NCBI GenBank assembly: GCA_965116795.1
Contig: OZ220716.1
Coordinates: forward strand, 2,122,503 to 2,186,502
Direction of reading: 5' to 3'
DNA length: 64,000 nt
Source: Gammaproteobacteria bacterium
GTDB lineage: Bacteria; Pseudomonadota; Gammaproteobacteria; JAJFKG01
The notes beneath the pieces were generated by a model. It ran no database searches, was not told where the DNA came from, and worked only from the letters and a program-made list of their open reading frames with translations. Below are positions 56,401 through 59,073 of the stretch, in pieces. The first letter of the stretch is position 1. Each line of letters begins with the position of its first letter. The position numbers and the translations under genes are program-made.

Positions 56401-56971
56401 CTTTGTGACTTAACCAACGCTTTACAATCTTTACCTTCTCGGCAGGCGGACTCTTGTCATCCATCATGATAATACCCGCCGTTTGACCTAAGCTGATGTA
56501 TTCACGCTCTAACTGTTCTTCCGTCTCTGCATTAAACCACGCACAAAAAACATAACGTGACATAATCGCTTCATTCTGAATATAGTCTGTTGCAAGCTGT
56601 GTCTTACCAATACCCCCTAACCCCTGCAGGGCAGCAGCCGATAAGCGTGCTGCTGATAGCACCACTAGTTTATCCCCTGCTTGCTCAAACGCGGCATTTA
56701 ATTCTTCAACCTTTTTCGGACGCTCAACAAAACAAGATACCCTGGGTGGGAAATTTCCCCATTCCTTAAGCTCCGAAGGTGTTTTTAGTTTTACCGGCGG
56801 ATAGTGCTTTTGTATTGTTACCAAGCTTGTATCTTTAACAACAACGTCTTTTACTTTTGCGCCCATTTCGGCAAATGTCGCGTGAATATTAATAACGCTA
56901 CCATCTGTTTCCTTTATTATTTGTCTAGCTGTATTTGTTTGTTGGCTCACCGTATGGCTGCTAGTTGCCAC
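53480..56971 (-). CDS. NLR1: NB-ARC/STAND NTPase plus TPR array; possibly translated as -1 fusion to the upstream ORF
   Basis: GLGGIGKT Walker A, WLLVYDN Walker B, ILITSR, LPLALAQAGAY, 42-aa TPRs. Confidence 0.9.
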   Translation of the reverse strand: MATSSHTVSQQTNTARQIIKETDGSVINIHATFAEMGAKVKDVVVKDTSLVTIQKHYPPVKLKTPSELKEWGNFPPRVSCFVERPKKVEELNAAFEQAGDKLVVLSAARLSAAALQGLGGIGKTQLATDYIQNEAIMSRYVFCAWFNAETEEQLEREYISLGQTAGIIMMDDKSPPAEKVKIVKRWLSHKENHGWLLVYDNVTEATSVKKYIPSKGGHILITSRKATWVDAKVIEVPLFTDEEARELIIRQSGCEAEEPALTNLIEELGHLPLALAQAGAYIKVKLGHYKTPIAEYLSLYLHNKEERLKDDTLRQETLLDTHESVHITFDMNFKELPPESLKTLYHCGLLASEPIPIDIIKESMKVGVEEAKEQEAVKYNEVFDEALFELNKYSLLAVDAKKQIVSLHRILKVLMQARFEHLSGVERGLRWFEVTTSMLTHSEERNPSMQEVKRRTDLTVHLQEVSDVFDELESAIDKEQTSEVKINKDVLQLWAANLYSELGDEYYTMGDVIRAGARWERALRIDEAHYGQDHWQVASTLVNLANAFGALGDAQTKKTLLERALAIKEEHYGKDHWQVASTLVNLANAFGALGDAQTKKTLLERALAIDESHYGKDRWQVAITLGGLANAFSALGDAQTQKTLLERALAIKEEHYGKDHWQVASTLVNLACAFGDLGDAQMQKMLLERALAIEEKHYGKDHWQAAITLVNLACAFGDLGDAQTQKTLLERALAIEEKYYGKDHWQVASTLVNLACAFGALGNAQTRKSLLERALAIQEEHYGKDHWQVAITLGGLANAFGALGDAQTKKTLLERALVIQEEHYGKDHWQVAITLGSLANAVGALGDAQTQKTLLERALAIQEEHYGKDHWQVAITLGNLACAFGALGYAQTKKTLLERALAIQEEHYGKDHWQVAITLVNLANTFGALGYAQTKKTLLERALAIQEEHYGKDHWQVASTLVNLANALGDAQTKKTLLERALAIKEEHYGKDHWQVVITLGSLANALGALGDTQTQKTLLERALAIKESHYGQEHPSVALTLGHLAMAYKALGQIELGLSKMERAHRMIKSCSGYEQHPHTLWMERCIKQLNKDMQASSKDSATKVSVAQLSGIFHKEKEESGFASPLASEETSEELEKTKEKNLADAGQKQGVIGSGLGLQG
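53912..55414 (-). repeat. 12 near-identical 126-bp TPR-coding repeats (one with 9-bp deletion)
   Basis: ERALAIxExHYGKDHWQVAxTLxxLAxAFGxLGDAQTxKTLL units counted by hand. Confidence 0.93.
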
Positions 56972-56992
56972 CGATGAGCTAATTACTTTTTT
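56945..56992 (-). promoter_or_regulatory. Putative -1 programmed ribosomal frameshift cassette, copy 1
   Basis: A_AAA_AAG then 6 nt (TAATTA) then GCTCATCG-GTGGC-loop-GCCAT-A-CGGTGAGC; -1 frame open into NLR1. Confidence 0.75.
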
Positions 56993-59073
56993 AGGCTTCT
57001 AGCAGATACCCCTTCTTCTGCTTGCTGACTATTAGATGGTTGCTGTGATGGTGCAGAGCCTCGTAACTCTTGAATACGTACCTCTAATTGTGTAACCTCT
57101 TCTTTCATTAAATACCTGTTTTGAAAATCCTCAAGCCATCCTAGTTCATCACCCCTATCTTCTTCATCGCTATACGTTTCTTCAATTAATTGCGCTAACT
57201 GTGTAACCAAATGTTTATGTTTCATTGTGGCTGCTTTCACTTTACCTTGAGACACATTAGGAAATGACGACAAAGCACAATGACCAGGTGACTGTTGTGG
57301 TGATGTCTTCGCTTCCTGTTTTGCCCCACTTCCTCCAGTGAAATCCATGCTTTGGTTCACTAGTGTAATGTTACTCATCTCCACATTCGTTAAGCGTGTC
57401 CCTGATGGCGCAAAGGTTGCACGAGTGTGCTTAGGTTCAATTTTGTTAATAAAAGCGGCATCTCTACTACGCTGCTCTTCCGACACATCAGGTAGAAACG
57501 TTTTGCTTTGGTTTACCAGCACGACATCCTGAACTTTGCCTCCTTCCATCGCCGTATTGTCTTCAAAAAACGTCGCATACACCGATTTGCCCGCTTCTTC
57601 TGATTTATGCTTGAGAGCGTACTCCTCTAACTGTGCTAAACGCTGCTCGAATGAACGCTGTATCTCTTCATGCACGCTTTCATCAGAACGCTCAAACAGC
57701 CTAATAGGTAATCCCAATACATCCGCCGTTGCTTGAGATAAGATACGTTCCCAATTGTATTCTCGGGTAGAGTCAAATTGTAAGTAATCCAGCTTTTTAC
57801 CAAGGTATTCCATGCTGACGCGTAACCGCTCAGCTTGATTCATCTCAACAGAGAACTGTAATTCTTCTTCATCTTCCTCCTGTTGCTCCTCCTCACCTTG
57901 CAACTTTTTACGCTTAACTGCCCGTATGAGCTTATCTGCGGCTGCTTCACCTTTTTTTTCTGCTTTTTTGAGTGTTTTTTCTTCACTGCCCTTTTCAAAG
58001 CTGTTTTCCCAACCTGATTCAAAACATAATAACAAGCAATACGTGAGCGCTCGTGCAAAAAATATAAATCGAACAGGGTCAACTTCTAAGTGCGTGATAC
58101 GCTCAAATCTTTTTTCACGTTTTTTACCCTCAACATGTCCAAAAATATCATTCAGCTCTTTACTAGCAAGAACGCCCGCACCCGATATCGGAACAAACGC
58201 AGCCGCTATACTCGTAGTGTAAGAAAACCCTTTATGAGACTTTGTTTCGCTCGCCGAGACCTTACCCGAGATAACCGCATTGGCACCAATACCAGCACTA
58301 CACAGTTTATGTAAAAACGCATTCAGATAACGACCGCGAGGACTGTTTTCTGATAATACCAAATGCAACGGTTTCTCTAAATTGGTTGATGAACTGGATG
58401 CAGCAGGCGACATGAATGGTTTGGTACTACCCACAGTGGATGAACTTAAACTCGATGACGAACTGCTACTTGGTGAAATTACTTTTTCTGAGGAAAATAG
58501 CCCTAAATTTCTTTCTGCTTTTTCTATCTCTTCTTTTATGCCTCTATCAATAGTCTTAGCTATCCTTACATTTGATTCTTCTTCTCTTCCTTCTAGATAG
58601 AATTTAGCAAAGCGCTTGGTTTCATCATCACCTATTTTCTCAAGCAGTTGCAATTTTTTCCGTATCTCTTTAATTTCTAACATTCTGGCACCTAGAACAG
58701 CAGCAATATACTCATCAGATACTTCTTCTTGACTAAAATCTGTTGATTCATCTTCCTCTTCTTTTTCTTTTGATATTGGTTTTGGGATTTGTGATAACTT
58801 GCGAACTAAGTCTTTGGCCTGTTGTTCCTCAATATCAAATTCAAGATGGTCATTATCACGCAACATGCCAGAATAATTGGAACTTTTTTTAATGGCTTCC
58901 TCAGAGATTCTTCTTACAGTTTGTTGTAAACTTTTGTCGACTGACTCAGAATCGTAAAATCCTTGCAGAATAAATCGATACAAATTACCCTCACCATCAA
59001 TCTTAGCTACGTGTAGATAGTTTCTGTGATATTGTTGTGCATCAATTGTTGCAGCATTTAGTCCCTGAAACAT
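56983..59073 (-). CDS. Effector 1: unknown helical domain plus two 27-aa ATF motifs (start 59073 by GAGGAG SD)
   Basis: Clear paralogy with the 62506 ORF over its C-terminal ~460 aa; no recognised family. Confidence 0.8.
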   Translation of the reverse strand: MFQGLNAATIDAQQYHRNYLHVAKIDGEGNLYRFILQGFYDSESVDKSLQQTVRRISEEAIKKSSNYSGMLRDNDHLEFDIEEQQAKDLVRKLSQIPKPISKEKEEEDESTDFSQEEVSDEYIAAVLGARMLEIKEIRKKLQLLEKIGDDETKRFAKFYLEGREEESNVRIAKTIDRGIKEEIEKAERNLGLFSSEKVISPSSSSSSSLSSSTVGSTKPFMSPAASSSSTNLEKPLHLVLSENSPRGRYLNAFLHKLCSAGIGANAVISGKVSASETKSHKGFSYTTSIAAAFVPISGAGVLASKELNDIFGHVEGKKREKRFERITHLEVDPVRFIFFARALTYCLLLCFESGWENSFEKGSEEKTLKKAEKKGEAAADKLIRAVKRKKLQGEEEQQEEDEEELQFSVEMNQAERLRVSMEYLGKKLDYLQFDSTREYNWERILSQATADVLGLPIRLFERSDESVHEEIQRSFEQRLAQLEEYALKHKSEEAGKSVYATFFEDNTAMEGGKVQDVVLVNQSKTFLPDVSEEQRSRDAAFINKIEPKHTRATFAPSGTRLTNVEMSNITLVNQSMDFTGGSGAKQEAKTSPQQSPGHCALSSFPNVSQGKVKAATMKHKHLVTQLAQLIEETYSDEEDRGDELGWLEDFQNRYLMKEEVTQLEVRIQELRGSAPSQQPSNSQQAEEGVSARSLKK

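Follow-up and report, generated by a model that had tools for sequence, protein, structure and literature searches.

A candidate HET-s-like motif switch with predicted -1 frameshift junctions in two effector/NB-ARC-TPR gene pairs of a gammaproteobacterium

The question raised by this locus is whether a short motif shared by adjoining effector and NLR genes passes a signal from sensor to effector, and how the two proteins are produced. In the window, that is, the whole 64,000-nucleotide stretch of DNA analysed, two tandem effector/NB-ARC-TPR gene pairs were found on the minus strand, as were all the features given below; both have two motif copies in the effector (R1 and R2) and one at the NLR N-terminus (R0). 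The effector-side protein of module 1, E1 (56983..59073, 696 aa), consists of an N-terminal domain (residues ~1-105), an acidic insert, a central helical domain (~240-460) and a coiled coil, followed by R1 (57496..57576), a linker (57421..57495), R2 (57340..57420), a small C-terminal helical domain, a polar tail and a Lys-Lys-stop ending. Its partner N1 (53480..56971) carries R0 at 56801..56881, NB-ARC, a winged helix (DUF7779), 13 TPR units and a polar tail. The effector of module 2, E2 (618 aa), is paralogous to E1 and occupies 62506..64000 within the window, starting ~360 nt past the window end, with R1 at 63112..63192 and R2 at 62956..63036; N2 (59603..62479) has R0 at 62318..62398, NB-ARC, a winged helix, TPR and a polar tail. 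Between the effector stop and the first NLR GUG lie 11 nt in module 1 and 26 nt in module 2.

Both NLRs scored above the Pfam cut-off for NB-ARC, matched DUF7779 and TPR_10/12, and have an intact Walker A. On these sequence features they can be assigned to the NB-ARC-TPR STAND receptors, which are defined by an NTPase with Walker A, a winged helix and a TPR array. The TPR units of N1 are 42 aa each, with a mean identity of 82% across the 11 compared.

Minus-strand translation agreed letter for letter with the positions of R1, R2 and the N1 motif in the sequence-only reading, and the 25-residue linker reported there for both modules was recovered as a 52-residue spacing in E1 and E2. The periodicity of about five residues was also found, positions 3, 8, 10, 13, 15, 18 and 20 being hydrophobic or small; the strongest hydropathy period among those tested was 2.5. 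The 27-residue motif is present in six copies. With a six-copy profile, nothing further was found at E < 1 among the 20,963 ORFs of the genome, nor did 158 NLR loci, with 20,527 ORFs, give any match, and none of the 226 candidates from a metagenome scan with the repeat alignment was confirmed. Non-orthologous copies are identical at just 6-11 of 27 residues. When the NLR N-termini were compared with the effectors in a 27-residue window, the top two ungapped diagonals were R2 and R1 in all four comparisons, and their summed score was matched by none of 300 shuffles in each. The single best diagonal was matched by three of 300 shuffles for N1-E1 and by none for the other three comparisons, and a 20-residue window performed less well (best diagonal p 0 to 0.06). 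R1 against R2 was the top internal repeat of each effector, exceeding all 40 shuffles. The N1 R0 scored 48 against the effector of the other module and 36 against its own, and R0 showed no matching specific to its module. Judged from the sequences, the motif is beta-rich and likely acts as a prion-like handshake between the sensor and its partner.

A foreign-only profile was built from 20 repeats of foreign effectors, anchored by eye in the register of this window. Among 257 NLR N-termini, it ranked the N2 R0 first (E 4.6e-5) and the N1 R0 second (E 0.072), the third-ranked N-terminus having E 0.83 and reversed sequences reaching E 8.8 at best; none of the 255 foreign N-termini gave a significant match. 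Several candidates were set aside. The beta-rich N-termini of P0007 and P0011-P0015 ranked highly with a distant-subfamily profile, at non-significant values (E 0.7-21); P0027 resembled the motif by eye and was ruled out by profile comparison (probability 1.9 and 0.1); and the NLR N-terminus of locus L010 showed no match to its upstream protein, 312 of 500 shuffles being equally good.

Word-based searches for homologues, run with E1 and also with the repeat alignment, recovered the two window proteins only, so a profile search of 1.84 billion representative proteins was needed. This gave 16 foreign effector matches, all with the helical domain, and the effectors form an unnamed family in which a helical domain precedes the two repeats and a helical linker lies between these. 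The two-repeat unit was read by eye in ten of the 16, at a spacing of 52 residues in three and 60-71 in seven, and in a blind self-comparison the repeat was reached by at most five of 200 shuffles in just five of 17 tails (three of them foreign). The R1-linker-R2 unit is the best-kept part of E1 and E2 (53 of 79 residues identical, the central domain having 86 of 222), and its 79 codons hold 24 synonymous codon changes and 26 amino-acid changes, which supports purifying selection on the unit. The central ~250-aa helical domain had no Pfam or PDB sequence match, HeLo included; a fold search with its pLDDT-60 model reached a best Z of 5.1, with no Foldseek match. The effectors were matched by neither PADLOC nor NCBIfam. 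In genome samples that partly overlap, the family alignment found no foreign match in 399 class genomes and 300 phylum genomes, in 119, 9 and 3 genomes of three orders or in the five genomes behind NLR loci, and a single-protein search found none in 60 relatives. A match in locus L006 (E 0.008) was rejected because it sits in an unrelated ORF, which resembles a 16S rRNA methyltransferase. In the homologue P0127 there is an OTU-like protease domain, with a Pfam E of 0.00086 that does not reach the cut-off and an OTUD5 E of 0.005. By eye, P0125 shows Asp-Gly-x-Cys and His words as in P0127. The C-terminal domain of E1 and E2 resembled P0127 at a non-significant level (E 0.12).

A frameshift-like signal at the gene junction, like the mid-protein position of the repeats, had been missing from the sequence-only reading. 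Both junctions have the sequence features of a -1 programmed ribosomal frameshift: an in-frame X XXY YYZ heptamer, a short spacer, a stable 3' structure and an open -1 frame. Predicted cassette 1 (56945..56992) comprises A AAA AAG at 56986-56992, a 6-nt spacer containing the stop codon and a 13-pair hairpin at 56945-56979, and predicted cassette 2 (62474..62518) comprises A AAC CCC at 62512-62518, a 6-nt spacer with the stop codon and a hairpin at 62474-62505. A Shine-Dalgarno-like GAAGGGG was seen by eye 16 nt upstream of the E1 heptamer (57009..57015), and the same run lies 13 nt upstream of the heptamer of cassette 2 (62532..62538). The genome scan covered 228 ORF pairs whose -1 frame stays open over the stop codon and gave 22 rows with an in-frame heptamer; solely these two junctions had a stem of -20 kcal/mol or lower at 4-10 nt, the next stem being -8.5. 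The hairpin z-scores were -3.9 and -4.8. The N1 and N2 frames stay open upstream across the slippery site, and N1 has no ATG ahead of R0. It is thus predicted, from sequence, that one mRNA would yield both the free effector and an effector-NLR fusion.

The cassette pattern was found twice in this genome, once in each of two Sorangium genomes and in none of the 280 other genomes of the phylum sample; a viral scan gave no matches. The Sorangium cassettes use A AAC CCC and lie 3' of a TIR ORF (SIR2-TIR in locus L041), leading into a STAND NTPase ORF in the -1 frame. Heptamer rows in NLR loci numbered 27, of which 11 were examined; those of L028, L048, L068, L073, L114 and L130 were dropped as shadow ORFs or chance, and that of L059 was also set aside as ambiguous.

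The reading that we prefer, and hold to be about evenly balanced between right and wrong, is a HET-s-like switch in which the sensor copy templates the effector copies into a beta-solenoid stack, with a predicted -1 frameshift making free effector and effector-sensor fusion from one mRNA. Most ribosomes would stop and release the free effector, and a minority would slip to give, in module 1, a fusion of ~1,860 aa; slippage would thereby set the effector to sensor ratio, and some sensor may start at its own GUG or AUG. If the frameshift is real, R0 is also a third internal repeat of the fusion and not merely an N-terminal tag. By analogy with other NLRs, the TPR array would bind a ligand that triggers NTPase oligomerisation and so brings several R0 together, and the stacked R0, as in NWD2/HET-S and BASS, would then seed R1-R2 of free effectors. 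Pentapeptide-repeat (Rfr) beta-helices are built of five-residue faces with two inward positions each. The present motif would resemble them in that each repeat may form one rung of four short five-residue faces, with the linker helix packed outside; here there would be one rung per copy, with seven residues in the first face. Pentapeptide Pfam models matched neither the motif nor the proteins, the periodicity alone being present. In the weakest step, the central helical domain would be freed by clustering and would act on a membrane through its amphipathic hairpin, which contains glycine and proline; this is a guess, because the domain has no fold match. Action in the bacterium would amount to abortive defence; the alternative site would be a host cell, after Dot/Icm export.

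Several known systems share parts of this arrangement. As in HET-S/NWD2 and fungal HRAM1-5, two effector pseudo-repeats follow a helical domain and one copy is found at the N-terminus of the adjacent NLR, with charge complementarity between repeats and clustering by repeat order, as far as these are described in the available text (PMC4518210). The motif is longer here (27 against 21 residues), the linker is a conserved helical one of 25 residues in place of the variable, glycine-rich loop of 6-18 residues, there is no HeLo or HET-s Pfam match, and extra domains and a predicted frameshift fusion are added (PMC4518210). The Bell/BASS1-10 pairs are likewise bacterial and collinear, with an effector preceding NB-ARC-TPR by a gap of a few nt and a beta-prone motif of ~25 aa, and two repeats occur in some effectors of BASS1 and BASS6 (bioRxiv 2020.01.06.895854). 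They differ in that the effector here has the 250-aa unnamed helical domain and not Bell, the host is a Dot/Icm-bearing gammaproteobacterium and not a multicellular actinobacterium or cyanobacterium, and the motif is neither Q/G-rich, as the BASS bias is, nor C-terminal in E1 and E2; the term 'programmed frameshift' does not occur in the available part of that paper (bioRxiv 2020.01.06.895854). The antiphage system Bab/Agp (BASS11) of E. coli shows amyloid signalling through a shared motif to be functional in a unicellular gammaproteobacterium, although its sensor is TPR-GreA/B-PIN, its effector a Bell-like protein of 109 aa, and each carries a single motif (bioRxiv 2024.11.07.622273, available part). 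The junctions recall the dnaX and IS3-family -1 signals in the in-frame A AAA AAG, the downstream stem-loop and, in module 1, the upstream SD-like run, but would join an effector to an NLR (PMC6771820, PMC4066793; both in part). In E. coli, A AAA AAG ranks with the most efficient frameshift motifs, whereas the A AAC CCC of module 2 and Sorangium is not, A AAC CCA being one of three below threshold (PMC4066793).

Whether the motif is an amyloid or part of a folded domain bears directly on this reading. The proposal in the sequence-only reading of a new amyloid or beta-solenoid motif family is partly supported by the R1/R2/R0 layout, the two-repeat unit kept in foreign effectors, the purifying selection and the lack of a match to known models, four motif fragments matching no Pfam family at E 10 (amyloid and pentapeptide models included) and no PDB sequence at E 10. 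The comparison with HRAM covered the HET-s model of Pfam. In-register charges between R1 and R2 also fit the proposal, being complementary (four attractive in E2, one in E1, none repulsive); between R0 and R1 or R2, repulsive charges are as many as attractive ones. The amyloid part of the proposal sits less well with the linker (no Gly, 17 of 25 residues identical between E1 and E2, predicted helical) and with a composition that is 9% K and not Q/G-rich. These features, together with the pentapeptide-like faces, would suit a soluble mini-solenoid of two rungs, R1 and R2, capped by the linker helix and completed by R0, which would supply the third rung either in trans or, within the fusion, in cis; R0 would then be an ordinary docking tag with no self-propagating amyloid. 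The repeats lie mid-protein in E1 and E2, ~120 residues from the C-terminal end, and further domains follow them in these proteins and in P0125 and P0127, as would suit a folded soluble domain, and the low Q/G and high K depart from the BASS bias (bioRxiv 2020.01.06.895854, available part). Against this, tested amyloid systems have the same two-plus-one layout next to an oligomerising NLR, and the repeats terminate the homologues P0128, P0130 and P0136 as in HET-s. Uncapped beta-solenoid rungs also tend to stack. We consider soluble docking unlikely. A point against the HET-s-like switch is that AlphaFold confidence across the repeats was below 50, with a pLDDT of 44 in the first model. A further reading, in which DNA duplication left the copies behind as relics that have no function together, is already disfavoured and very improbable: the low identity of R0 to R1/R2 and the lack of a foreign NLR match would agree with it, but between non-orthologous copies 32-43 of 81 nt are shared and the same codon is mostly used at half or fewer of the conserved residues, the repeat unit is the best conserved part of the effectors, and R0 is recognised by the foreign-only profile.

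With respect to expression, the same junctions could serve translational coupling with no frameshift, the hairpin hiding the NLR GUG until the ribosome terminating on the effector melts it, which would give two separate proteins and fits either protein mechanism. The stop lies 0-3 nt ahead of the stem in all four cassettes (two modules and two Sorangium), the hairpin arms of cassette 1 hold two in-frame N1 GUG codons, and the invariant 3' arm contains an in-frame GUG; the outer stem shows invariance and not covariation, 8 of 11 pairs being unchanged and two having two-sided changes. N2 could start at GUG 62479 or AUG 62443, and overlaps and short gaps are frequent in Bell/NLR pairs (bioRxiv 2020.01.06.895854, available part). 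Such coupling is nevertheless unlikely, as no Shine-Dalgarno sequence precedes the hairpin GUGs, the heptamer varies between modules yet retains its X XXY YYZ form, reading frame and 6-nt spacer, and all four closest foreign effectors end in Lys-Lys-stop, an ending found in 11 of 1,387 long ORFs of this genome. Against frameshifting, neither Lys-Lys nor Asn-Pro terminates eight of 14 foreign effectors. As to the place of action, the genome encodes a Legionella-type Dot/Icm core (IcmK, E 8.8e-87, DotI, DotM and the coupling protein; a search for DotA gave no match, and neither did its control), so action inside a host cell is possible, and it may tentatively be suggested that all four proteins are Dot/Icm substrates and that the switch acts in a eukaryotic host and not in the bacterium. 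The polar low-complexity tails ending all four (top 2-6% of 1,387 long ORFs by a crude score of our own) and the sub-cut-off OTU-like domain of P0127, with its words in P0125, point that way. The acidic blocks in the tails are modest, however (2-5 per 10 residues, E1 not being enriched). As is seen with mobile defence genes, a serine recombinase/DUF2924 element adjoins the locus, and the locus is absent from the two nearest genomes, which are 90% and 97% complete. Sorangium, which is free-living, has the same cassette in a TIR system, and no match was found in 119 genomes of another Dot/Icm-bearing order. The most far-reaching combination seems quite improbable, namely Dot/Icm export into a eukaryotic host of a complete NLR-plus-amyloid switch, in which a TPR sensor is linked to a new family of membrane-acting effectors by a new amyloid motif, pentapeptide-like and helix-bridged, and the proportion of free effector to fusion is set by a frameshift cassette also present in distant phyla.

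If the HET-s-like switch is correct, NLR signalling through shared motifs would gain a motif family and an effector family, both new, from a host-associated lineage for which the literature searched describes none. The switch also suggests that the signalling fold could be a pentapeptide-like rung bridged by a helix. The frameshift, if true, would explain the balance of few sensors against many effectors, and many annotated two-gene pairs would also make an all-in-one receptor.

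Two tandem modules, ordered E2-N2-E1-N1, are read towards lower coordinates, each effector (E1, E2) preceding its NLR partner (N1, N2), and the start of E2 lies past the window end. Both NLRs are NB-ARC/winged-helix/TPR proteins by Pfam; neither effector matched any family in Pfam, NCBIfam or PADLOC. In module 1, the effector motif copies R1 (57496-57576) and R2 (57340-57420) and the NLR copy R0 (56801-56881) proved to be exact minus-strand translations. Six copies occur over both modules, and a profile of them recovered nothing further below E 1 from the 20,963 ORFs of the genome. 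That the motif is common to NLR and effector, as the sequence-only reading proposed, was borne out: in each of the four comparisons of an NLR with an effector, R2 and R1 gave the two top-scoring 27-residue diagonals, and none of 300 shuffles matched their summed score. The sharing is real and beyond chance. Copies of different classes are identical at just 6-11 of 27 residues, so the signal is carried by pattern and position. The periodicity of about five residues also held: each copy divides into one face of seven residues and three of five, and positions 3, 8, 10, 13, 15, 18 and 20 are hydrophobic or small. Between E1 and E2 the R1-linker-R2 segment is the best conserved part (53/79 identical, against 86/222 in the central domain), with 24 synonymous and 26 amino-acid-changing codons. 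The near-identical TPR units of N1 (53900-55450, minus strand) vary mainly at positions 11, 14, 15, 18, 29 and 40 of the 42-residue unit, a pattern that would fit a shuffled sensor surface.

Word-based homology searches matched only the window's two effectors, and a profile run against 1.84 billion representatives recovered 18 matches, 16 of them foreign and from metagenome assemblies. The foreign effectors have in common a helical domain, some 250 residues in length, in which a Gly/Pro hairpin is conserved and which is followed by a coiled coil. Two beta-rich repeats flanking a helix-like linker were read by eye in 10 of the 16, spaced at 52 (three), 60 (one) or 62-71 residues (six); the truncated P0124 was counted through its full-length cluster partner P0139, and P0133 (a fragment), P0134 (repeats absent) and P0127, P0130, P0136 and P0137 (register not clear) were excluded. 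Blind self-comparison detected the repeat at no more than 5/200 shuffles in 5 of 17 tails (E1, E2, P0123, P0125 and P0128); P0131 passed on a register that belongs to a coiled coil, and for P0126 and P0135 the correct register came out at 18/200 shuffles. An OTU-like protease domain, found by search in one homologue and by eye in a second, is fused behind the repeats in one of P0125 and P0127 and ahead of the helical domain in the other. The pairs P0129/P0134, P0124/P0131 and P0135/P0146, each with an identical length of the longest contig for both members, are probably each paralogues within one genome, P0134 being the partner that is without repeats. AlphaFold modelling from a 16-sequence alignment (mean pLDDT 60) gave a helical bundle, confident for the most part with a low-confidence hairpin at 72-115, strands opening both repeats (confidence below 50) and a helix in the linker; fold searches with this model gave nothing outstanding (best Z 5.1; no Foldseek match at E 0.001).

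A profile of 20 foreign repeats, anchored by eye and containing no window sequence, was run against 257 NLR N-terminal regions. The R0 copies of N2 (E 4.6e-5) and N1 (E 0.072) ranked first and second, the best reversed-sequence control reached E 8.8, and none of the 255 foreign regions matched. Since the window copies top a profile built on foreign effectors, R0 is, judged by sequence, a member of the motif family that effectors carry.

At the end of each effector a heptamer of the form X XXY YYZ stands in frame (A AAA AAG in module 1, A AAC CCC in module 2), followed by 6 nt containing the stop and then by a hairpin (z-scores -3.9 and -4.8); the NLR frame, -1 relative to the effector, is open through the slippery site in both. 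A GAAGGGG run, seen by eye, lies 16 nt (module 1) and 13 nt (module 2) upstream. In module 1 this predicted arrangement is like the dnaX signal, which the accessible part of PMC6771820 describes as A AAA AAG with a stem-loop after it and an SD-like run ahead of it. Across the genome, 228 ORF pairs have a -1 frame open over the stop and 22 of these rows hold a heptamer, and of those only these two junctions reach a stem stability of -20 kcal/mol or better. In the same scan four identical ORF pairs of 108 and 277 codons (G000:C1:1691288, 1938810, 2049196 and 2117145), each with A AAA AAG and probably an IS3-family element, served as a rough positive control. All four closest foreign effectors end Lys-Lys-stop (background 11/1,387 long ORFs of this genome) and two further ones have Asn-Pro within the last four residues (10/1,387); 8 of 14 have neither ending. 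In the available portion of PMC4066793, the best E. coli frameshift motifs include A AAA AAG; A AAC CCC is absent from the efficient list and A AAC CCA falls below threshold. Module 1 is therefore a strong candidate frameshift signal and module 2 a weaker one.

Among 158 NLR loci, the heptamer-spacer-hairpin cassette, with eight invariant stem pairs, recurred in two Sorangium cellulosum genomes (L041:5197-5241 and L077:5210-5254), between a TIR-ending ORF and a -1-frame 371-codon STAND NTPase/winged-helix ORF lacking TPRs; in L041 a TIR-NB-ARC-TPR gene comes after the latter. The cassette pattern, one degenerate position of which was put in once the Sorangium cassettes were known, matched twice in the source genome, once in each Sorangium genome and in none of 280 others. 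Two other loci have A AAA AAG at the effector-NLR junction with stems weaker than the window's. In L010, a Francisellaceae MAG (2-838 and 781-3021), the heptamer is in frame, with an open -1 frame for the NLR. When 20,527 ORFs were searched with the effector-family profile, the upstream protein came out as top match, at E 0.2 and over no more than the linker and R2 portion; its match to the NLR N-terminus was not significant. In L125 a small protein (1-462), helical and with a beta-rich motif at its C-terminus, adjoins a -1-frame NLR (417-2657), the heptamer standing one codon ahead of the stop before a small hairpin; the pair looks like a Bell/BASS pair. At L140:6411-6911 a TIR gene ends Asn-Pro-stop with a -21 kcal/mol hairpin and NB-ARC open in the -1 frame, the full heptamer being absent. 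A 98-codon ORF (L142:4266-4562) shares a clear motif (z 11) with the next NLR (4555-6795) in the +1 frame, also with no heptamer.

Taken as a whole, the best reading, to which we give about an even chance, is templating of the effector repeats by NLR R0 combined with frameshift fusion; the anatomy, conservation and signal elements are observed, and the steps that follow are predicted. Ligand would drive NLR oligomerisation and stack the R0 copies, which may serve as template for free effectors, so that their R1-R2 segments form a beta-solenoid polymer; polymer formation would release the effector helical domain, which may act on the membrane. Frameshifting would yield a minor effector-NLR fusion and set the effector:NLR ratio. 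For this last step, a junction hairpin that gates translation restart at the NLR GUG, with no frameshift needed, remains a rival; N1 lacks any ATG ahead of R0, and no Shine-Dalgarno sequence was found before the hairpin GUG codons. The main rival to templating is soluble docking of two rungs (R1, R2) with one (R0), in favour of which stand a linker that is conserved and predicted to be helical, a low content of Q/G and the placing of domains behind the repeats, and which we regard as rather unlikely.

Where such templating would act is balanced near evenly between export into a host and bacterial defence. The genome (2.45 Mb, G+C 41%) carries a Dot/Icm core cluster (G000:C1:374100-387968) with IcmK, DotI/IcmL, DotM, a coupling protein and a short TrbI-like protein (427 codons); in a sample of 400 genomes from the class, 89 had IcmK. 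Polar C-terminal tails on all four proteins (E1, E2, N1 and N2), with the OTU-like domain of homologues, point to possible export. Pointing to defence are a flanking mobile element, whose serine recombinase and DUF2924 genes (64872-67152 in window numbering, past the window end) lie directly upstream of E2, a patchy distribution, and the occurrence of the cassette in Sorangium. The effector was absent from both family-level relatives in the collection, and searches of relatives, class, phylum and order samples and NLR-locus genomes found the family in this genome only. Beyond the recombinase are SNF2-, RecQ- and RecD-like helicases and an NRPS-like gene, named by eye. Downstream neighbours (46658-52910, minus strand) look ordinary: Hsp20, a host-attachment/baeRF12 protein and a phosphoribosyltransferase, and by eye a CBS-domain protein, a CoA-transferase pair and a heavy-metal ATPase. 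Elsewhere the window carries, by Rfam, four tRNAs and the SRP RNA. A third NB-ARC protein (G000:C1:2220906-2226536, plus strand; L170:4907-10534) joins a class 3 lipase, NB-ARC and TPR in 1,876 codons, an all-in-one architecture without the 27-residue motif.

In its proposed way of working the system would be alike to HET-S/NWD2 and Bell/BASS, as far as the accessible parts of the sources describe them; Bell/BASS NLR pairs come from bioRxiv 2020.01.06.895854, and bioRxiv 2024.11.07.622273 reports such shared-motif signalling, Bab/Agp, in E. coli. The suggested comparison with HRAM came out negative, the window motif falling outside on two counts, motif and linker, by the definition in the accessible part of PMC4518210. 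Such a system does not appear in the available portions of the 2026 review PMC13506858, PMC8195603 or PMC3711429, and a literature search, mostly outside subscription journals, found neither this motif, nor Legionellales-type amyloid signalling, nor frameshift-joined effector-NLR pairs. With BASS compared by description only, the modules would bring to NLR shared-motif signalling a probably new family of motifs, together with effectors of an unnamed family and a predicted link by frameshifting.
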